From: Novakomyces olei
Lineage: Eukaryota
Assembly (NCBI GenBank): GCA_016906335.1
Contig: JADEYG010000009.1
Location: 992,001 to 1,056,000 of the forward strand
Direction: 5' to 3'
Length of the DNA: 64,000 nucleotides
Every line of letters starts with the position of its first letter. Position 1 is the first letter of the stretch. Both the position numbers and the translations under genes were made by a program. Of the stretch, positions 26,847 to 61,031 are shown in pieces. Under the pieces are notes generated by a model. The model searched no databases. It was not told the origin of the DNA and was given only the letters and a program-made list of their open reading frames with translations.

Positions 26847-28261
26847 ATGCACTCCAGCTTAGGTCGCGTAAGCGGACTGCGTCAGAGCAGACTGCATTGG
26901 AACAAGAGTGTGCGTGGTTTGGAAAATTGCAGGAAAATGGCCTCAGTACCAAAGATCAAAGTGGCAAATCCTGTCGTTGAACTGGACGGCGATGAAATGA
27001 CACGAGTCATTTGGAAAGTGATCAAGGACAAGCTCATCTACCCTTATCTCGACATGGATATAAAGTACTACGACTTGGGTATCGAGCACCGTGATGCTAC
27101 GGACGATAAAGTTACAGTACAGGCGGCCGAAGCTATTCTGAAATATGGTAAATTGACTCTTACAAGATTGTCTATTCAAAACTTTATTTTTATTTTCAAA
27201 AACGGCGTATACTAAATAAATTAGACGTGGGAATCAAGTGTGCTACTATTACCCCTGACGAGGCTCGTGTAAAAGAGTTTAATTTGAAGAAAATGTGGCG
27301 ATCGCCTAATGGAACTATCCGCAATATTATTGGCGGCACAGTGTTCCGTGAACCCATTGTTATTCAATCCATCCCGCGTTTCGTGCCCGGCTGGACAAAG
27401 CCTATTACCATTGGCCGTCATGCCTTTGGCGATCAGTACCGGGCAACGGACTTCGTAGTGCAGGAACCTGGCCGGCTGGATCTTGTTTTTACTCCAAAGA
27501 ATGGATCCGAGGCAAAGACATATAACGTGTACGAGTTTCCAGAACATGGAGGCGTAGCCCTGGCCATGTACAATACTGAGGACTCTATTCGAGGCTTTGC
27601 CCGCTCTTCCTTTGAGCATGCATTAAGCAAAGGACTGCCTCTGTACTTGTCTACAAAGAACACGATCCTCAAGGCTTATGATGGCCGTTTCAAGGACATA
27701 TTCGCAGAACTTTATGAAAAGGAGTATCGTGATGCGTATGAGAAGAAGGGGATCTGGTATGAACACCGATTGATTGATGATATGGTTGCTCAAGCTATAA
27801 AGTCCAACGGCGGCTTTGTGTGGGCTTGCAAAAACTATGATGGAGACGTGCAGTCAGACATTGTAGCCCAGGGTTATGGATCTCTAGGTTTAATGACGTC
27901 AGTGTTGGTACATCCTAACGGTCGTACAGTCGAGGCTGAAGCTGCTCATGGAACTGTACAGCGCCATTATCAGCAGTACAAGCAAGGAAAGCCTACCAGT
28001 ACGAATTCGATTGCCTCTATTTTCGCCTGGACCCGTGGATTGGCTCAGCGAGGTCGTCTTGACAAAAACGAGGAGCTGCAAGCTTTCGCTACCGCTGTGG
28101 AAAATGCTTGTGTATCTACGGTGGAAGCTGGAATAATGACAAAGGATCTGATGCTCATCCGCGGTGCCAAGTCAGGCTGGGTCGATACATTTGAGTTTCT
28201 CGATGCTGTTGCTGATCGCGTACGTGATGCAGTCTCGACCGGGCTGAAGAGTAAACTGTAA
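26847..28261 (+). CDS. IDP1: NADP-dependent isocitrate dehydrogenase (2 exons)
   Basis: [18 protein letters not shown], intron ~27148-27224, [39 protein letters not shown]-terminal SKL. Confidence 0.96.
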
Positions 28262-30990: not shown

Positions 30991-31532
30991 ACTTTATAAT
31001 GTTGAATATATTTAAGCTTTCATTTTATAGTCTTCATGGAAATGTTGTAACTTGTGTGCAGTGCAAAAGTGATTAGCAAAGTAGTATCTTAAGGTATAAG
31101 CAAGCAGAGGTTGAAGCGTGTATAGTCTACCTCTATAAAGTGATCATTATAAACTGTGGCGTGTGTTTCAAGTGTAATGTTTGCTCAAAGTATGGTGGCG
31201 TTCTGCAAAATGTGGTGCTTCTCATTTGTATGTAAAAGGCGAATTATAAACTTTACCACACTGGAGAAGAATAGTATTAGTACTATGATAAGCATTGCTA
31301 ATTTCAGCAGTTTATTGCCTGAACCGTCGTCTGTTTGGACACTGAAGAACGGAGCATAATTTGAAAAATGTTGCAGTCTACTTACATATGCGTTTAAAGT
31401 AATTTTTAGGTATAAAGCTGTAAGGACAATGTAATTAAGACTGTTTATTTATTATAATATATATATATATATATAATTATATAATTATTATATTATAGTT
31501 AATTATAAAGACTACTTGGCCCTATCAAACGT

Positions 31533-40748: not shown

Positions 40749-43202
40749 TCACGGCTTTGGTTTAGGACGATTAATAAGATTTCCAGTCTTATCCACCTCC
40801 ACACCGAGTTCTTTAACTTCAGGTATCGCCAGCTCTAAAGCCTTCATGGCCGCTCTGGTCTGAGCAAAACCCAGGTTCACATCCTTCCCTATCCCATACT
40901 GTGCACCGCCTATACGACAGGCAATAGTTTTGCAGGGGAAAGGGTGAGGTTTCTCATGAACCTCGACATACTCAATTCGACGAAGCGATCGGGGGAATCC
41001 ACGGTACACAATTGCCTGTAATTTTTGCTTTGCATTCATATCAAGAGGCCCAAAGTCCTCATACAAACTGGCTTCTGCCCGTACTTTAAATTTCTGTACC
41101 ATAGGTGCTGATATCTGCCGGAACCAGGTGTAAGATTCTGCGTTTTTGCACTCGAGCATAAGGGCTCCAATGTACACTTTGAACTCATCAGCATAAGCAA
41201 ATCCATCGATAGACCCTCTGACAGTGGTCAGATTCTTGCGCAAACTACTGCGATCCTGGAAATCATACATTTTCCGATAAAATTCTAGTGAATAATGGGA
41301 AACGAGGTCGAATCTCATACGCTGAAGCTGTTCTCTTCGCCAGTGAGGAAATTGGTCGTAAGCTACACGCCCTGCTAGCGACATTAAGGCAATATCACCA
41401 ATAAATTCGAGTCTGTCAGCAGCCAAACCCTTGCGCGTGAGTGACGAGAGAGTGTCTTTATCCAGCTCCTCCCCTTCGTCCAAATCCAAGCGCAAAACAG
41501 TTCGAAGGTCTGTTGATTCAATGAGTGGAACATCGGGAAAGTCTTCGGATTCTTCATCTTCCCTAAGATCCTCGTCACCGTCTTTCTCCTTGTGGGCTTC
41601 ATTTATGTTATTTTTGCTTTCCACGCTATTATTGATACTGTTATTATTATTATTATTATTATTTTCAGCAGCAGCTACCTCGATTCTGACATCGGTTCCA
41701 GGTTCAAATTGCACATCATTCCCATCAGCACCACCTTTGCCAGCTTCAACAACGACAATATTATCTAAATTAGTTACATTTTCCGCGACATCTTTGGTCT
41801 CTTTGGCTTCTTTTTCCCTTCTGCTCAGAATCGAAGCGTCCATTAGCTGGTCATCATCGTCCGAGACGACGGAGGTAGAGGATACGGAGTTTGCTCTGTG
41901 TGTTGTTGCCGAAATATATACCGCCGGCTCTGCCTGCCTACTATTTCTGGATTCTTGAACAAGGGTTTGAGCACGAATAACTGCTTCAAACCCTTCCGTA
42001 TGGTCCGAAGAATGGCCATTTTCAGACTTCGAATCAGACCCACTCTCTCCTTCAACCAAGGCACCAACAACCGGCCCTTTATCCTTTGCATTTATATCAA
42101 TAGCATCTACATCGTTCGGTTGAGCGACATTTGTTTCCACCTGTACAAAGGAAGACCATGAATTTGGTAGAGCACTCGCCCGATCATTGTCTATAGTCCA
42201 GGCCTTTCTCACACCATGATGAGGATGCAAACTTCCGGTCGGGGGAGGAGAGCCACTGTCGTTTCGACCAGTAGAATCTCGACCAGTATCATTAGGCGTA
42301 GAGGCTGAATTAGCAGTAGACGCAGAAAGGCCTTCCTGGTCTTTTGCGTCAGAGTATTGTTGGCTTCTGCTTCTTCTGCTGCTGCTACCACTGCCACTGC
42401 GATCACTGATACTCCTATTTTGTGAGTATTCGGGTTCAGACTCGTCGGAATCGGACTCTGATCCAAGATGAACCATTTCTGCATCAGTATCAAAGTGCAT
42501 TCGCTCCTTCCCTGCAATTTCGCGTTCCTTGATTGATCTTTTCCGCAATCTCCGCATTTTTTGCCATTCATTACGGTCTTTTTCGAGCACATCTTCCACT
42601 GCGCCAGGCTCCTCTACAGCGTAATCCATCATTGACTCCCGACTCTTGTCTTTGTGCGCTTTGGCAAAAGTGCCGGTTTCGTCCTTGACAGTAAAATGTT
42701 CAGGTACTGCTCCGTCCTTTACCGCTTCGTTCTTTCCGCCCTTTTTGTTTTCGCTATCGTCTCCTTTACCCTCATCCTCAGCCTCGTCATCGTACTCTAC
42801 GTCCCGTTCTGATCCAGATCCGTTCTGCATTTCCTCGTCGTCCGAGAGAGACGGCTCCGGTACAATCTTTTGCTTCAGAGGTAGCATTTGAGCTCTTGCA
42901 TCAGCGCTCAATTCAATATTGAAAACGGCACTTGTTACGTCTGGCGACGCGTTACGCGCTGTATCAGATGCCGGAGACCTTTCTTGCTCAGTGCTAATTC
43001 GAGCGGTTTCGGACTGGTCTGAAGGCTTTAAAAGCCGCTCACCTATTTTGTCTACGCGCTCATGCTCCTCCTCATCATCGACAGTAATAGAAAGCGGAGA
43101 AGAAACGCGCAGCCGTTTCTGCGCTCTTTCAACAGCCGCCACAGATTCATAGACGGGCGAAGACTCTCCCGCTGCCGGACCAGGAGCCTTGCTGTCAACC
43201 AT
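40749..43202 (-). CDS. Pac1/Rnt1-like RNase III + dsRBD protein with degenerate active site and long acidic N-terminus (start uncertain)
   Basis: DRLEFIGD signature, AYDQFP, LVSH, FAYADEFKVYIGAL, then dsRBD DMNAKQKL..IACRIGG..GIGKDVN..AQTRAAMKALE. Confidence 0.85.
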   Translation of the reverse strand: MVDSKAPGPAAGESSPVYESVAAVERAQKRLRVSSPLSITVDDEEEHERVDKIGERLLKPSDQSETARISTEQERSPASDTARNASPDVTSAVFNIELSADARAQMLPLKQKIVPEPSLSDDEEMQNGSGSERDVEYDDEAEDEGKGDDSENKKGGKNEAVKDGAVPEHFTVKDETGTFAKAHKDKSRESMMDYAVEEPGAVEDVLEKDRNEWQKMRRLRKRSIKEREIAGKERMHFDTDAEMVHLGSESDSDESEPEYSQNRSISDRSGSGSSSRRSRSQQYSDAKDQEGLSASTANSASTPNDTGRDSTGRNDSGSPPPTGSLHPHHGVRKAWTIDNDRASALPNSWSSFVQVETNVAQPNDVDAIDINAKDKGPVVGALVEGESGSDSKSENGHSSDHTEGFEAVIRAQTLVQESRNSRQAEPAVYISATTHRANSVSSTSVVSDDDDQLMDASILSRREKEAKETKDVAENVTNLDNIVVVEAGKGGADGNDVQFEPGTDVRIEVAAAENNNNNNNNSINNSVESKNNINEAHKEKDGDEDLREDEESEDFPDVPLIESTDLRTVLRLDLDEGEELDKDTLSSLTRKGLAADRLEFIGDIALMSLAGRVAYDQFPHWRREQLQRMRFDLVSHYSLEFYRKMYDFQDRSSLRKNLTTVRGSIDGFAYADEFKVYIGALMLECKNAESYTWFRQISAPMVQKFKVRAEASLYEDFGPLDMNAKQKLQAIVYRGFPRSLRRIEYVEVHEKPHPFPCKTIACRIGGAQYGIGKDVNLGFAQTRAAMKALELAIPEVKELGVEVDKTGNLINRPKPKP

Positions 43203-43874: not shown

Positions 43875-45830
43875 ATGGCCATGGCAATTGTTATCGCAGC
43901 CACAGCGGCAGTTACTTACCTGCTCTACTGGTTAAACAACCGGCTTGAAGTTCTCTCTGACTTGGGAGTACTTTTATTCTTTTTGTACCGCACAGACCTG
44001 TACCAGTGGTGGTACCGTCGGCGCGGTCGGATCAGCCTGTTTTACAGGCTACAGGAGCAAGCACAGTCAAGGCCGAATGCTGTTTTTTTACGCCCAGATC
44101 ATGGAGCGGATGTGACCTTTGCCGAAACGCTGGACAGAAGCACCCGTTGGGCTTATTTCTTACTTGATTCTGGTCTTAAACGCGGTGACCGATTGGCAAT
44201 TGTGTTTGGCAATTCTGATAACTTTGTCTACGTTTTTCTCGCTTGCACAGCGATCGGAGTGATTCCGGCTTTTGTTAATTTCAACTTGTCTGGTCAAGTA
44301 CTCTTGCACTGCATAACCGTGAGCCAAGCAAGTATTGTCCTCTTTGAGTCGCGCTATGTGTCACAGATGGAAAGTATTGCTAAACAGTTGGAGGCTGCAA
44401 ACGTGGAGGCAGTAGCCTTTACCGGGTTCCAACAATTGTGGCCTCTGTCGTACAAATGGCCACGGGTTGTTGATTGGCAAGATATAGACAAAATGACCCC
44501 CACTCGGCCCCATCAGACCCCAATTACACCCCCGCACTGTGGCTGGAACGATGCGCTGTGCCTTATCTACACTTCGGGAACTACCGGAATGCCCAAGGCC
44601 GCAGTAGTAGCAAACTCAAAGTACCTTTTTGGTGCAAATTTGGGTATTCACCTTATGCAGCTCGGCCGCCATTGGCCATGGAGAAAGCAAAAATGGCCCG
44701 ATGTTGTTTACGTGTCCATTCCACTCTACCATTCCACTGGTGCCATGTTTGGGCTAGTGGCCGCCCTTTTGTCCGGAACGACTCTTGCCATTGGGACGAG
44801 TTTTAGTGCTCGTGCCTTTTGGAAAGAGTGCATAAGACTGCGGGCGACTCATATAGTATATATAGGCGAGCTTTGCCGGTACCTTGTAAATGCCCCGTCT
44901 GCTCATTCTCCAGAAGCCCACCAGCATCATGTCCGCTGTGCTTTTGGCAATGGATTACGACCCGACGTTTGGCACAAGTTTCGAGAGAATTTTGGGATAA
45001 AGAGAATTGTAGAGTTTTATGCTTCCACGGAGGGAACTTCAGCTCTGTTTAATGCTTCTTCCGATGGTCGCGGCGAGGGCGCGGTAGGCCGTTTAGGCCT
45101 TTTTGGGCTTTGGAAACTGGCTGCTTTTAGTGCCATTGTCAAAGTCGATCCACAAACAGGCGATTTGCTCCGCGACAGCCGGGGACACTGTATCCGGACC
45201 CGTGCAAACGAACCCGGTGAGCTGCTGCAGGTTGTAGAGCGAAAAAAGATTGATTTCACGGGGTATTATAACAGCAAGGCCTCCACACAATCAAAGCTGG
45301 TACACAATGCCTTTTGCAAGGGCGATACTTGGTACCGTACGGGCGATCTTATGGAAAAGGACAGGCACGGTTACTTTAGATTTTGTGATAGAATGGGCGA
45401 CACGTTCCGTTGGAAGGGAGAGAACGTGTCTACTGCGCAGGTCGAACACGTAATAAACTCGTTTCCGGGTGTTTGTGAGTCCAATGTTTACGGATCTCGG
45501 TTGCCCGGATACGAAGGACGCATCGGCTGTGCGGCTCTGCCACGTGACCTGCAGCACAATCTTGATTTTCCTGCTCTTGCGCTTCATGTAGAAGCCAATT
45601 TGCCAAAGTACGCGAGACCGATTTTCTTGCGATTCACTGACCTGGAACATACTGCTACGAACAAACAGCAAAAGCAGCGTTTACGCGACGAAGGAGTGGA
45701 TCCGGCATGCGTGTCGCCAAGGAATGACGCGGTTTATTGGCTGGTTGGCCAGCCGGGTGGCCGACCGGATTATCTGCCTTTCAAGGCAGATGACTGGGAC
45801 GCAATCGCTAGCGGTCAGGCTCGGCTTTGA
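43875..45830 (+). CDS. FAT1: Very-long-chain acyl-CoA synthetase / fatty-acid transport protein
   Basis: LIYTSGTTGMPKAA, YIGELCRYL, FGNGLRPDVW, EFYASTEG, DRMGDTFRWKGENVST. N-terminal TM, C-terminal ARL (PTS1-like). Confidence 0.93.
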   Translation: MAMAIVIAATAAVTYLLYWLNNRLEVLSDLGVLLFFLYRTDLYQWWYRRRGRISLFYRLQEQAQSRPNAVFLRPDHGADVTFAETLDRSTRWAYFLLDSGLKRGDRLAIVFGNSDNFVYVFLACTAIGVIPAFVNFNLSGQVLLHCITVSQASIVLFESRYVSQMESIAKQLEAANVEAVAFTGFQQLWPLSYKWPRVVDWQDIDKMTPTRPHQTPITPPHCGWNDALCLIYTSGTTGMPKAAVVANSKYLFGANLGIHLMQLGRHWPWRKQKWPDVVYVSIPLYHSTGAMFGLVAALLSGTTLAIGTSFSARAFWKECIRLRATHIVYIGELCRYLVNAPSAHSPEAHQHHVRCAFGNGLRPDVWHKFRENFGIKRIVEFYASTEGTSALFNASSDGRGEGAVGRLGLFGLWKLAAFSAIVKVDPQTGDLLRDSRGHCIRTRANEPGELLQVVERKKIDFTGYYNSKASTQSKLVHNAFCKGDTWYRTGDLMEKDRHGYFRFCDRMGDTFRWKGENVSTAQVEHVINSFPGVCESNVYGSRLPGYEGRIGCAALPRDLQHNLDFPALALHVEANLPKYARPIFLRFTDLEHTATNKQQKQRLRDEGVDPACVSPRNDAVYWLVGQPGGRPDYLPFKADDWDAIASGQARL

Positions 45831-46559
45831 GGTCTGCAATGCAGACGATTATAAACGATACACGCTGGCGACAGTTGAGATGTGTATGGATGAATGAAGA
45901 GTCTTTACAAGGTTTGGTTCAAACTCTAACTAAAAACAAGTCATAGACAGTTTGGAGCCATAGACAGTTTGGAAGCTTTTGTGTGGAGAATTATTTAATA
46001 AACACGCGCAATTTCCTAGAATGCGGGGCCAATTTCCGTGATTAATGTCGTGAGTGGTACGGTAGCTTATTGTTATCAAGAATAATTGGATTTTCTTTGC
46101 AGGTGTAACAAACCGTAAATTGCTCTTTAAATCTCAATCGTACTTGCGCTTTTGTCGCGAAAATGGGTTAATACCAAAACCTTAATCGGTCGCAGCGCGT
46201 GTCCGTTCACGTGCAGACCAGGGAAAACCCTGATTTACATAGAACTATGATTTCACTCAAAAAGTCTCACAATGCAATCACCCTGTAAACCACTATAGAA
46301 AACCACTATAGAAAACCACTACATAGAATAACCCCTCCCAAAAGAAAACCCTGTTGGAAGAATTTCCTTTTTGATCTTTAACCGCTCGTGTATAAAGATT
46401 CGCATATATAAGGACACGTTGCGCAATTGTGACACGTGGCGCTTTCTTCGCCGTAGACTTGCTTAGTCTGTGGTGGAGAATAGCATCAGCCAAAGCTATA
46501 AACTCTTTGAGCAGACAGGACACTGCCCACATCGATCTCTATTTGCCGCGTCGAAAAGC

Positions 46560-47416
46560 ATGTCGGCCTCAACGTTGAGTCCGTCGTTAAAACGTACGCA
46601 CGAGGATCTTTTACTGGGCGAGAGCAACTGCGCTCCCTCTGCCTCGGAAGACGGGTTATCTCCGATGGACACCTTGTCACCTCCGAAACAGCGTCGGACT
46701 AAAGCGCGTACAGTGGAGGAAAAGCAGCGTAAGGCCGATGAACGGAGTGAACGGAACCGGCGCGCCGCTAAAGAATCCCGAAATCGGCATCGCGAGTACG
46801 TGGAAAGTTTAGAGGGACAAGTGAAGAGCCTAAAGGACGAGAACACCGGATTACGGAAGAATCAGTCCATATTAGAATCACGTATTACTGCGCTGGAAAA
46901 GCTTTTGTGTGGAAATTCTAAGAATGAGGCATTAGTCAACAGCGATAAAGAAAACAATAAAAATGAAGATGGATCTGTGAGCGATTTGAGCGATTTTAGT
47001 GATTGTTCCGCTTCTCCTTCCAAGTCTTGTACTTCGTCATCAGCATTATTCAACGACGATCAAAGTGACGTTCAAAACTCACAAGGATTAGGTACAGATT
47101 TCGATGCTATTGATGAGCCCCTGTTCCCTCTACCTTGCACGAATAATTTTACATTAAACGACAAGGACGTTTTTGGGTACTCGTCTGCCTTCGAAGCCAG
47201 TATGCTTGATCTTCACCGTCCTGCAGCGACGGTGGGAGCCACAGTATCCACCAGCCTTGATGGATCTGCTGTGGCCGACCGGCAGTGTCGATCGAGCAAT
47301 TCCCTGGTTTTGAAACAGGTGATGTTTTTGAGTATCCATCTGGCTTCAACGACACTGGCGTCGATTCAGTTTTTCCACAGTTTATTGGGGCTGATGACTC
47401 CTTAAGTGTTCATTGA
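46560..47416 (+). CDS. HAC1: UPR bZIP transcription factor Hac1/HacA with unconventional intron
   Basis: PKQRRTKARTVEEKQRKADERSERNRRAAKESRNRHREYVESLE bZIP. The unspliced ORF stops at 47405. Removing 47224-47282 gives ..HRPAVSIEQFPGFETGDVFEY..DDSLSVH* (stop 47414-47416). Confidence 0.88.
47203..47298 (+). other. Ire1-cleaved RNA structure; 59-nt non-spliceosomal intron 47224-47282
   Basis: CACCGTC-[CTG|CAGC]-GACGGTG and CGAC-[CGG|CAGT]-GTCG hairpins, closed by the TGCTTGATC/GATCGAGCA stem. Confidence 0.88.
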
Positions 47417-47929: not shown

Positions 47930-48115
<186 letters not shown>

Positions 48116-56608: not shown

Positions 56609-59600
56609 ATGCACAACATTAGCATACTCGGACATGAGACAGTCTTGGAGTATGCGGACGATATCGCAGCAGTCTCGTTTGAAGGCGGATCGCGATCGCT
56701 GCTTATAGCGCGTGGGAATGGTCGCGAGTTTCGGCTGGAGAGAATCAACGTATGATCAAAGACGATTATGATTAATTTCGACAAAATTTGTTTTATTTTA
56801 TTTTTAATTTTTAATTCTTCCTTTGGTTCTCGTTTTCGTTTCCGTTTATTTATATTTTCTAGCCTGTCTATTTGTTTTTTATTAATTGTTTATTTCGTAA
56901 TTTATTTTTTTTATTTAATTATTGTCTTGTTTCCAACATTTGACTAATGCTAGCCCGGTGGAGAAAGGATACGGCTATCAGAGTTTAGCAGTACTGCTTC
57001 ATCGACTGAGAGCACAGCAGACGCAATTATCAGCCTTAAATCCGTAGCTGAAACGGGTCAAATTAGCATAGTTCTCTCGGGCGGTGACATCATTGTTGTG
57101 AACGAGGACGATGAAGGGGCGGTGGAGTACATTGGTTCCGTAGACGAAGGAATCGATGCGGCTGATTGGTCGCCGGACGAGCAGCTGCTCGTTCTGGCCA
57201 CTAAAGCGGACACGCTAATCTTTATGACTGCCCATTTCCAAGTATTGCACACGGTCCCCGTGAAAGTTTCTGACGACGATTTAATTCTACAAAAGCAGGT
57301 CAGTGTTGGATGGGGACGAGCAGAGACACAGTTCCGTGGAAAGCACGCTCGAGCAGCAGCAGCTGCTGCTGCTGCTGCTTCAGGTCCACGTGATCCAACA
57401 CTGCCGACGAGTATAGATGAGGGAACTTTAAGCGAGGCAGACGATAGGGCTGTTCGCCTTAGCTGGCGAGGCGACGGAGCCTGTTTTGCTCTCTCTCGTA
57501 TTGAAAACGGGCGGAGGGCAATTCGAGTGTACTCACGCACCTCTGAGCTTGACAGTATAAGCGAGCCAGTAAACGGGCAGGAAGGCGCTCTCGCTTACGC
57601 TCCCAACGGCTCGCTTATCGCTACAGTTAAGCGAGACGTAGATCAACAGCAGATCATTTTCTTTGAACGAAACGGGCTACGCCATGGCGAATTTGATCTC
57701 GGGGCAGTGACTGCCGTTCGGCAATTGGCTTTTACAGCCGACAGCAGAGCCCTGCTTGTAGTATTAGAGGACTCAGTGCAAGTCTGGGTGCGCAGCAATT
57801 ATCATTGGTACTTGAAGCAGGAACTTTCTACGCTTGACCAGAGCGGAACCCGTGCCCTTATCCACCCTGAACAAGGATCCGTATTGGCGCTGTGGACGGC
57901 GGAGTCGGTGCAGCTGTTTCAATTGGGCACACAGGTATACCGTCAGCAGCAGGAGCAGAATATAAATAAAAAGATGGAAAATAAAATGATGGAAAATGAA
58001 ATTATGGAAAATAAAATGATGGAAAATAAAATTATAAAAAATAAAAATACTGATAGTGATCTCGATCTGGGACTAGTAGCGGTCGTGGACGGCCGCCAAC
58101 TGCTGCTGACACCTCTGGCAACTGCCAATGTGCCACCGCCAATGTCGCTGGCTCAAGTGGAAACGAGCTCTGTTCCGCGCACAGTGGCAGTCTCGTCTCA
58201 GTATATTGCCGCCGTTGGAGACTCGGTTGTCGATGTCTTTGAATGGACTGCCAAGGGACCATTATTGAAGTTTTCCCTTGATTACAAGGACCAGTACATC
58301 TCCGAGTTTGCCGTTCGATCGGCCACTTTTATTGGGAAAAGTGTAGAAAACGGCAGCGGTAGAGGGAACGGAGACAAATCCGCTCCGGAAGCTCTTATTA
58401 TCGCCTGTCAGGAGGGAAACTTGCTGGTGCTTGATGTCGACAGTCAGACGGTAGAGGTCTGTTTGATCCAGCACGGTATAACTGACGTTTGCCACATTGC
58501 TCGAGTCATGGGGACAAGCAGCGAGTTTATTATCGCTGGCAGGACTGGCAGTTTAGCCTCTGCTGATCTTGCTGACCAATCTGCCAGGATCCTTCCTTTC
58601 AAACACGCCGGCATTATGGCTGTTCAGGCCTGCAGAGTTGGAGAGCAATTGCTCACTTTTACCCAATGCGCAGGCGGCCGATTGTTTGCCAATGACCGGC
58701 TATTAACAAACTCTAGTACTTCGTTTATGGCCACTTTAAACCACCTAATTTTTACTACGGCCCAGCATTTTGCCAAAATTGTGGTTTTACAGCCTTCAGT
58801 ATCGGACCTGCACGTGCCTGACGATGAGGCAGCGGGCCGGCTCGATGAGAGAGCCAGATCGGTCGAACGAGGATCTAGGATTATCATGATTTGCCCTTCT
58901 CAGCGTAGTCTGGTCCTGCAACAGGGCCGTGGCAATTTAGAGACTGTCTACCCACGGGCACTAGTGCTCGAGGGAATACGAGAAAATATACGAAATTCAC
59001 AGTACCGTGAAGCGTTCCTGGCCTGCCGGACTCACCGAATCGATATGAATATACTACACGACTACGATCCCGAGCGGTTCGCTGCCAATATCGACTTTTT
59101 TGTCAATCAGTTGGAGACACCGGATAATTTAGACCTTTTTATCTCGTCATTAAAGTACGTGTTTATCTACTTTTTCATTTATTATCTATTTTTCCATTTA
59201 TTATTTATTTTTCATTCATTGTCTATTTTTTCATTTATTATCTATTTTTTCATTTATTGTTTATTTTTCCATTTATTATTTATTTTTCATTCATTGTCTA
59301 TTTTTTCATTTATTATCTATTTTTTCATTCATTGTCTATTTTTTCATTTATTATCTATTTTTTCATTTATTATCTATTTTTTCATTTATTATTTATTTTT
59401 CATTTATTATGTGTAATAAATCTAACGCCAGACCGGAAAACGTCACACTTACGCGATATCCCGACCACCGGGCGGCGAGTACGAGTGCGCAGGACCAATT
59501 CCCAGCGGCAAAAGTCAACGGCATAACCGACTCTCTTATCCAGTGTCTCGAGTCGGAGCACAAAACGACGCATGAGAAATCAATAATCACCTGTTACATG

Positions 59601-61031
59601 TGCAAATCGCCTCCGGCACTAGCAAAGGCGCTCGAGGCAATTGCAAATTTGCGGACAGCTTCTGCGGTTGGCGAGTCTGGCTCACAGTTTGAGAGTGCAA
59701 TTGAGCACATTTGCTTCCTTGGCGACATAAACCAGCTGTACCGTGAATCCCTGGGCCTCTACGATTTGCCTCTGGCAGTAGCAATTGCGCAAAGGTCCCC
59801 CCTTATGGATCCAAAAGAGTATATTCCAGCGCTTGAAGAACTGCAAGCTCTCGGCCCGCTGGAGAGGCAGTTTCGGATAGACAATGACCTCGGCCGGTTC
59901 AGTAAGGCTCTGCTGGCTTTAAAGGCTGTGCCTGCCACAGAAGAAGCCTTTAACCGTCTTGTTGCCTATGTGCAATTGCACCCAGAGCTGTTTGAACAAG
60001 CACTCTCATTTTATCGTTATGGACAGGAGCAGCATACGGCTCTCATGTCCGCCTACGCTGCTGCTTTACAAGCAGACCGTAAATTTGCCTCAGCGGCTCT
60101 CGCTTTTTACTCTGTGGGCATTTACGCAAAGGCACTTGCCAACTATGAGGCTGCTGGAGACTGGCGAGCGGCCCTCTCTCTTGCCAGCCGTCTTGGCCTG
60201 CCTCACTCTGACCAGGAATCATTGGCCTCTGCACTGGCACAGGCCTGCTTTGAGCAGCAGAATTTTGTAGACGCGGCCGCAATCTACCGCGATTACTTGC
60301 ACAACTCCACGTCTGCGGCCCAGTGCCTCTGCGAGGCAGGCCGCCACGACGAAGCAGAAGCCCTTATCTTTCGGGACGCTGATAACCCTAACCCTAACCC
60401 TAACCCTCTTTATAGGTCTATTATCGTGCCGAGTGCGGTGGAAAAGTTTACCGAGGCCTCGGAGCTGCTGTCCGAGATGAGGGCTCAAATTACGTCACAG
60501 CTGAGGCGGATGCACGTTTTGCAGGAGAAGAAAGCAGCCGATCCGGCTGCTTTTATGGCCGAGGATGATGAGCAAGGCGATCACGATTCTGACGCTGTTT
60601 CTGTAGCAAGCTCAAACGTGTCCACGCTTAATACTGCGTTTACAAGGTACACGAGCATCTCTGCAAGCACTGCTGTCACTGGCGGAACCACGAAAAGATC
60701 AGCGGCAAAGAATAAAAGGAAAGAGGAGAGGAAAAAGGCTCGTGGACGTAAAGGTACCGTCTACGAGGAGCAGTACCTCGTGGCATCGCTCACGCGTCTG
60801 TGCGAAAGGCTCCGTGACGAAACTGACGCTTTACAAAGTCTGCTAAGGACTCTGATACGTGCTGGTGATTTTGTTAGAGCAAAGGCTCTGCAAAACCAGG
60901 CTCAGTCGCTGACACGAGCTGTTCAGGATTCAGTAGTGCCGATACTTGCCCCCGCAGATTCAGAGACAAGGAGCGATTATGTGTTTGTAAAGCCGTGGGA
61001 GACTATACCGATCTTGTACAGCGACGACTAG
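56609..61031 (+). CDS. ELP1: Elongator complex subunit 1 (3 exons)
   Basis: MHNISIL start, WSPDEQL, VSVGWGRAETQFRG, LSWRGDG, FFERNGLRHGEF, NYHWYLKQ, RGNLETVYPR, MDPKEYIP, RKKARGRKGTVYEEQYL. Introns ~56750-56954 and ~59155-59431. Confidence 0.96.
59160..59410. repeat. Degenerate T-rich tandem repeat filling ELP1 intron 2
   Basis: Repeated ~18-19-nt TTTTTCATTTATTATCTAT-like units. Confidence 0.8.

Follow-up and report, generated by a model that had tools for sequence, protein, structure and literature searches.

We asked whether an uninterrupted open reading frame (ORF) for a bZIP protein, present in a 64,000-nucleotide (nt) stretch of contig JADEYG010000009.1 (assembly GCA_016906335.1, positions 992,001 to 1,056,000 of the forward strand), is a HAC1 gene whose active product depends on the removal of an unconventional, Ire1-type intron from its mRNA. 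We refer to the whole stretch as the window, and count positions from its first letter. The Ire1-Hac1/Xbp1 switch represents the most ancient arm within the unfolded protein response (UPR), and its introns are bounded by small stem-loops. Our answer, to which we assign a probability of roughly 0.85, is that the ORF at 46560-47405 would belong to a yeast-like ascomycete and be its HAC1/hacA orthologue, carrying a 59-nt intron that is predicted to be spliced by Ire1.

The ORF, taken from the ORF list and its translation, lies on the forward strand, as do all features of the gene described below, and encodes 281 amino acids (aa). Its bZIP domain (46719-46901, aa 54-114) was recognized by Pfam bZIP_1 with E = 2.4e-10 and 40.8 bits, against a cut-off of 27.6, and by bZIP_2 with 31.2 bits. 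Approximately 300 nt 3' of the zipper lie the hairpins of the predicted splice region. The 5' splice-site stem-loop, CACCGTC-CTGCAGC-GACGGTG (47214-47234), has a stem of 7 bp that two G.U pairs lengthen to 9 bp (47212-47236), a closing-pair probability of 0.99, and a loop CTGCAGC at 47221-47227 in which the cut is predicted after G47223. The 3' splice-site stem-loop, CGAC-CGGCAGT-GTCG (47276-47290), has a stem of 3-4 bp, similar to that in relatives, and a loop CGGCAGT at 47280-47286 in which the cut is predicted after G47282. Both loops fit the Ire1 consensus CNG/CNGN (the slash marks the cut), one for each splice site and both downstream of the bZIP domain, and every string that an earlier note on this sequence had quoted is found in the DNA. 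Because the gene and the sequence up to 47800 contain only these two CNGCNGN loops with a stem of at least 3 bp, the borders of the predicted intron are unambiguous: the distance between the two cut sites gives an intron of 59 nt (47224-47282), a length of the form 3n+2.

Removal of these 59 nt would change the reading frame, and with it the C-terminus of the protein. Exon 1 (46560-47223; aa 1-221 together with the opening base of codon 222) is common to both isoforms, which share residues 1-222. The unspliced isoform then continues for 59 aa (aa 223-281, 47226-47405, with the stop codon TAA at 47403-47405), whereas joining 47223 to 47283 yields an ORF of 265 aa in which exon 2 (47283-47416, with the stop codon TGA at 47414-47416) supplies a tail of 43 aa. 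The two tails differ in composition, with 2 acidic and 5 basic residues (histidine included) in the unspliced tail versus 8 acidic, 0 basic and 7 aromatic residues in the spliced one. As judged from sequence make-up, the acidic, aromatic-rich tail fits an activation domain. The earlier note had described just such an excision, with a frame shift into the peptide RPAVS and an acidic tail, and the reconstructed 265-aa ORF bears this out.

We examined the fold of the splice region with RNAfold, which the earlier note had put forward as a check. For positions 47195-47305 the minimum free energy (MFE) structure is a four-way junction of -46.3 kcal/mol, with z = -3.52 and none of 200 shuffled sequences equally stable; it includes one additional pair within the 3' loop. 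The outer stem that was said to close the two hairpins is indeed present, its 5' arm TGCTTGATC (47203-47211) pairing with its 3' arm GATCGAGCA (47290-47298) over 9 bp, of which one is G.U. One correction is called for, in that the outer helix and the 3' stem each need G47290 as a partner, so that the two helices comprise either 9+3 or 8+4 bp. Pair probabilities are 0.12 for C47276-G47290, 0.92 for C47279-G47287 and 0.85 for U47203-A47298, and in the modelled ensemble the outer helix usually takes G47290 over the 3' stem. The third arm of the predicted junction is an inner hairpin of 38 nt that lies inside the intron (47238-47275) and folds at -19.6 kcal/mol when taken alone. The earlier note had counted this hairpin as a feature of the intron in its own right; it is a predicted fold, present in both the MFE and the centroid structures, and, being without comparative support, it was claimed too strongly.

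How often would such loops arise by chance? In the window, 16 CNGCNGN loops sit on stems of 4 bp or longer, compared with 9.3 +/- 2.9 in 200 dinucleotide shuffles, and 2 pairs of loops lie within 1000 nt of each other, compared with 0.7 in the shuffles. A twin of loops within 120 nt occurred in 63 of 1000 shuffled windows, and a twin that was also enclosed by an outer helix of at least 6 bp occurred in 1 of 1000. The argument that this locus exceeds chance is therefore drawn from the closure of the twin by an outer helix and from its place just 3' of the bZIP domain, and not from the loops alone.

The protein itself was assigned by several searches. A phmmer search of a library of 1.84 billion proteins returned 72 proteins at E <= 1e-3, the best of which, P0002, matched residues 58-280 of the query at 41% identity (E = 1.4e-19). 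P0002 keeps the peptides H-R-P-A-A-T-V and Q-C-R-S, which overlie the two loops, at a spacing of 16 codons plus 2 nt; this amounts to approximately 50 nt and is likewise 3n+2. The next matches, at 45-55 bits, show a P-A...Q-C signature. The Hac1-like neighbours as a group score 45-87 bits, compared with at most 24.4 bits for the bZIP proteins of the PDB (Jun, CREB, Fos, ATF and Pap1). The two top clusters of the ESM Atlas, which share 191 and 188 of 256 features with the query at a score of 0.94, carry the automatic name 'Transcriptional activator hac1'. A profile built from the window protein and its 12 best matches found 299 proteins; among the 120 listed, 21 are named HAC1 or hacA and 0 are named as another bZIP family. 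A scan with NCBIfam gave only chance-level matches. By search scores and names, then, the bZIP sequence appears to have its nearest kin among Hac1 proteins and not in another bZIP family, and the Hac1-type assignment made in the earlier note agrees with the nearest proteins, the Atlas clusters and the profile matches alike.

We also took advantage of DNA from relatives. A first metagenome scan, based on an alignment of the window with P0002, produced 102 pattern matches, of which 0 were confirmed. A second metagenome scan supplied 35 loci encoding related bZIP proteins. In 22 of these 35 (14 of 20 plus 8 of 15) the Rfam family RF04247, the Hac1/Xbp1 intron, matched at E <= 1, in all cases on the coding strand and just 3' of the bZIP domain, and no other Rfam family was listed at the 35 loci. 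A loop scan found twin loops in 28 of the 35, at spacings of 17, 20, 23, 29 or 44 nt, all of them 3n+2. We spliced 18 of the 28 twin-loop loci in silico, leaving out near-duplicates, and in 14 of the 18 the junction reads P/A-V-S and leads into an acidic tail, in which 12-18 residues are acidic and 0-2 are basic. The junction predicted for the window, R-P/A-V-S-I-E-Q, resembles the H-P/A-V-S-F-E-Q of one of these loci, L016. When the window was compared with 14 loci, the 5' stem was found to covary: all 8 pairs are changed on both sides, 93.2% of the cells are paired, and none of 500 shuffles equalled it. Of the 4 pairs in the 3' stem, 3 are changed on both sides, and the core GAC-CNGCAGT-GTC is almost invariant in 15 aligned relatives.

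Several points weigh against the assignment of this locus as a spliced HAC1 gene, and we set them out together. The first concerns Rfam, whose models had also been suggested as a check. RF04247 aligns over its positions 1-72 to 47203-47298, with both loops in register and the outer helix arms coinciding with the ends of the alignment; the score is 18.4 bits versus a gathering threshold of 41, with E = 3 for 1.3 kb, which by the standard of Rfam is no hit. The outcome is thus a full-length alignment at a sub-threshold score. The inner hairpin enters the alignment as a 38-nt insert, and the low score arises because this insert is penalised. Because only 1 of the 22 matches in clear relatives reached 41 bits, the gathering threshold is not a sharp one for this clade. 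Second, single loops of the Ire1 type are frequent by chance. Third, the profile search probes the family of the neighbours and reaches the window protein only indirectly, and a word-index protein search with the window protein alone returned nothing at E <= 1e-3. Fourth, 4 of the 18 loci spliced in silico lacked the junction: in L001, L010 and L023 the choice of frame failed, and L030 is ambiguous. Finally, hairpins were admitted to the covariation comparison by a script that demanded 3 or more pairs beside the loop, and the inner pairs are therefore biased towards the structure.

Three other explanations were weighed against this evidence. The one that survives best, which we nevertheless consider improbable, is that the gene is a true descendant of HAC1 in a circuit that no longer serves as a splicing switch, Ire1 acting instead through mRNA decay, as in fission yeast, or cleaving without productive ligation, and the hairpins being a relic or a decay signal. 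Schizosaccharomyces pombe, which according to the available text of PMC13703316 keeps Ire1 without HAC1, indicates that the ascomycete circuit can be rewired, and for the present locus both the splicing and the presence of Ire1 are predictions from sequence. Against this reading, the two loops and their stems are intact, and so are the outer helix, the 3n+2 length and the open, acidic second frame of 43 codons. That P0002, at 41% identity, retains both loop peptides and a 3n+2 spacing further argues for continued selection.

A second and less probable explanation accepts the intron as real and places the main novelty in the unspliced protein, Hac1u, a conserved hydrophobic C-terminal segment of which would tether the nascent chain and its mRNA to the membrane of the endoplasmic reticulum (ER). 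Mammalian XBP1u and the membrane anchor of plant bZIP60 are parallels for such a tether. The segment in question, aa 254-272 of the unspliced tail, is moderately hydrophobic, with a maximal 19-residue Kyte-Doolittle mean of 1.47. P0002 has a hydrophobic stretch at the homologous place (mean 1.33), and several of the related loci have hydrophobic unspliced tails. Against this, 5.6% of the 19-residue windows read in the same shifted frame from 18 other ORFs of the window reach 1.47, and 10% of the open runs of that frame extend over 57 or more codons. We therefore rejected the hydrophobic tail as a special feature: given the statistics of shifted frames, an acidic frame with T-rich third positions can yield such a stretch incidentally, and this is likely its origin here. 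Last, it is hardly credible that the protein belongs to some other bZIP family, such as ATF/CREB or AP-1, and that two chance hairpins imitate Ire1 sites. In its favour, single loops on 4-bp stems are frequent (the window has 16 in its 64 kb), the RF04247 score is below threshold and bZIP domains are short and hard to assign. Against it, 1 of 1000 shuffles produced the closed twin architecture, the proteins nearest to this one resemble Hac1 and score 45-87 bits versus at most 24.4 for the other bZIPs of the PDB, the junction peptide and acidic tail match those of 14 of 18 related loci, and both loop peptides are conserved in P0002 at 41% identity.

We thus return to the reading of the locus as a HAC1 gene with an Ire1-spliced intron, the sequence traits of which are all present in silico: loops in register with RF04247, a 3n+2 length, the conserved P-A-V-S junction and an acidic tail. 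For this reading the following mechanism may be proposed. The mRNA of the splice region would fold into a four-way junction composed of the outer helix, the 5' stem-loop, the inner hairpin and the 3' stem-loop. Upon ER stress, the RNase of Ire1 would cut each 7-nt loop after its third base, at G47223/C47224 and G47282/C47283, while the outer helix and the stem halves would hold the exons together. A tRNA ligase would then join the exons with the loss of 59 nt, and the resulting frame shift would swap the 59-aa unspliced tail for the 43-aa acidic tail, giving an active Hac1 of 265 aa that would activate the genes of the UPR. From the DNA itself we read the predicted fold with its loops, the change of frame and the acidity of the new tail; the cutting, ligation and activation steps are modelled on the established Ire1-Hac1 pathway, and we infer from the sequence both that Ire1 is present and that the intron is spliced. 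Neither IRE1 nor TRL1 is found among the 19 ORFs of at least 250 aa in the window that were scanned with Pfam.

The unspliced message was considered separately. In Saccharomyces cerevisiae-type regulation the intron pairs with the 5' untranslated region (UTR), and an RNAduplex comparison of the region 46430-46565 with the intron gave -34.0 kcal/mol, compared with an average of -38.7 over 300 shuffled introns, 88% of which were at least as stable. Pairing of this type was accordingly ruled out as no better than that of shuffled introns. Because no pairing between the 5' UTR and the intron was detected, the unspliced mRNA is probably translated into the 281-aa Hac1u, by analogy with species that have short introns.

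Two further observations concern the flanks of the gene. Upstream, a TATA-like run at 46392-46415 is followed by a CACGTG palindrome in GACACGTGGC (46433-46438), approximately 125 nt before the ATG. We take this hexamer to resemble both the UPR elements with an ACGTG core and a generic E-box, and autoregulation of HAC1 through it is conceivable. Downstream, positions 47930-48115 form a perfect (ATT)62 microsatellite, approximately 500 nt beyond the two stop codons of HAC1, and T-rich runs come after it.

Because ordinary gene finders miss an Ire1-type intron, annotations give the inactive isoform. The main practical value of this analysis is a corrected annotation, in which the predicted 265-aa active isoform is obtained by joining 47223 to 47283. 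The locus also adds an example of a mid-size intron (59 nt) in a lineage without close annotated relatives. Apart from the question of lineage, this is an ordinary, well-conserved HAC1 gene with a known mechanism.

The lineage was approached through the gene that lies directly upstream of HAC1, a FAT1-like acyl-CoA synthetase at 43875-45830. Its relative P0074 is 65% identical, and named fungi reach 35-41% among the matches listed. For P0074 and P0002 alike, the source is given as a Logan contig with a length of 8,714 nt, and conserved synteny of FAT1 and HAC1 is therefore likely. The closest proteins to this lineage thus stand at 41% (Hac1) and 65% (FAT1) identity, with values of about 40% to named fungi. 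Among the FAT1 matches listed, Protomyces and Savitreella (Taphrinomycetes) rank amid Pezizomycotina, Basidiomycota and Mucoromycota, and no sequence of Saccharomycotina is present among the 120 listed; hence none is included in the FAT1 tree. There, a long branch (1.17) bears the window and P0074 within a clade of Ascomycota that has a support of 99 in the Shimodaira-Hasegawa-like approximate likelihood ratio test (SH-aLRT), as one part of a three-way split of the window lineage, Taphrinomycetes and Pezizomycotina. Grouping the window lineage with Taphrinomycetes costs 4.15 log-likelihood units (approximately unbiased test, p = 0.089), which neither favours nor rejects such a placement, and its grouping with Pezizomycotina has a support of 22. 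By these protein sequences the lineage is placed inside the Ascomycota on a long branch.

Two other sources bear on placement within that phylum. The GC content of the window, 45.5%, versus the 43.8% given in the available text on a published Taphrinomycotina genome (PMC7912804), is too weak a likeness for placement, and a search for the junction peptide with a regular expression in 20 named Hac1 proteins was uninformative for the taxon. We regard it as a possible but rather doubtful proposition that this is a deep ascomycete lineage, perhaps of the Taphrinomycotina, which keeps an intact Ire1-Hac1 switch and in which the 59-nt intron forms a distinct four-way-junction architecture, the inner hairpin, and not direct adjacency or a long intron, bringing the Ire1 sites together. 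On this view the putative intron of about 50 nt in the relative P0002 suggests that a mid-size form is stable in the clade. Among the matches listed for HAC1 together with Taphrinomycotina or five of its genera, a scope that lies apart from supplements and from Hooks and Griffiths-Jones 2011, the available text describes no Taphrinomycotina HAC1 intron.

Other features of the window were recorded in passing. The Rfam family group-II-D1D4-7 matches at 31350-31442 with 40.7 bits versus a gathering threshold of 34, within AT-rich intergenic and seemingly nuclear DNA, and this match is probably due to chance. ELP1 is split into two ORFs, 57224-59416 and 59409-61031, that overlap by 8 nt; Pfam coverage of its alpha-solenoid is contiguous over the break (positions 1-68, then 68-203), which indicates that the split stems from a frameshift, an error in the assembly or else an intron of very small size. 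The gene for NADP-isocitrate dehydrogenase contains a spliceosomal intron of 77 nt (27148-27224, GTAAAT...TACTAAA...TAG), with a branch-point-like motif approximately 10 nt from the 3' site. For a number of further genes the profile match begins partway, which suggests that introns are 5'-biased. An ORF of 817 aa on the reverse strand (40749-43202) shows a single RNase III domain, weakly matched at aa 595-684 (21.7 bits), and a double-stranded RNA-binding domain (dsRBD; aa 742-789), and its N-terminal region of 590 aa is without a Pfam match. Going by this domain content, its product is not a canonical two-domain Dicer.

We compared the gene with HAC1/XBP1-type systems described elsewhere, relying in each case on the available part of the source. 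The S. cerevisiae HAC1 intron is 252 nt long and blocks translation by pairing with the 5' UTR; in the Saccharomycotina, introns measure 19-379 nt and up to approximately 850 nt, those of the CTG clade spanning 152 to approximately 850 nt (PMC6222058). The S. cerevisiae and CTG-clade genes have in common with the window gene the gene family, an Ire1 loop at each exon-intron border and an intron whose interior is structured. The window gene differs from them in its far shorter intron and in showing no 5' UTR-intron pairing above that of shuffled introns.

Shorter introns are found in the Pezizomycotina, where hacA/hac1 has introns of 20 nt in Aspergillus and Trichoderma and of 23 nt in Neurospora (PMC13703316, in the portion available). 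These genes, and the RF04247 model, resemble the window gene in their twin 7-nt CNG/CNGN loops, their outer helix, their 3n+2 length and their switch to an acidic tail. In contrast to these, the window gene is predicted to carry a 38-nt hairpin between the loops, and hence a four-way rather than a three-way junction.

An intron of much the same mid-size class belongs to HXL1 of Cryptococcus neoformans, for which the accessible text reports an unconventional, Ire1-dependent intron of 56 nt, splicing by reverse transcription PCR, and no pairing between the 5' UTR and the intron (PMC3154848). Like the window gene, HXL1 encodes a bZIP of the UPR and has its intron downstream of the bZIP domain, at 56 versus 59 nt and in both cases 3n+2; pairing with the 5' UTR is not reported in the one and was not detected in the other. 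HXL1 belongs to a basidiomycete and its splicing has been demonstrated, whereas the window gene belongs to an ascomycete lineage and its splicing is predicted; the comparison covers features other than the folds of the introns. The earlier note had called the intron size unusual, which was an overstatement: because introns of 56 nt in HXL1 (PMC3154848) and of 19 to approximately 850 nt in Saccharomycotina (PMC6222058) are documented in the parts of these sources that are available, 59 nt falls within the known range.

S. pombe offers a contrast, in that Ire1 is present and a HAC1 orthologue is absent (PMC13703316, in the portion available), whereas the window carries what we predict to be an intact HAC1 orthologue, in possibly the same subphylum if its lineage belongs to the Taphrinomycotina. 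Were that placement true, the switch would have persisted in the subphylum in which fission yeast lost it, and the position of the loss of Hac1 would be narrowed.

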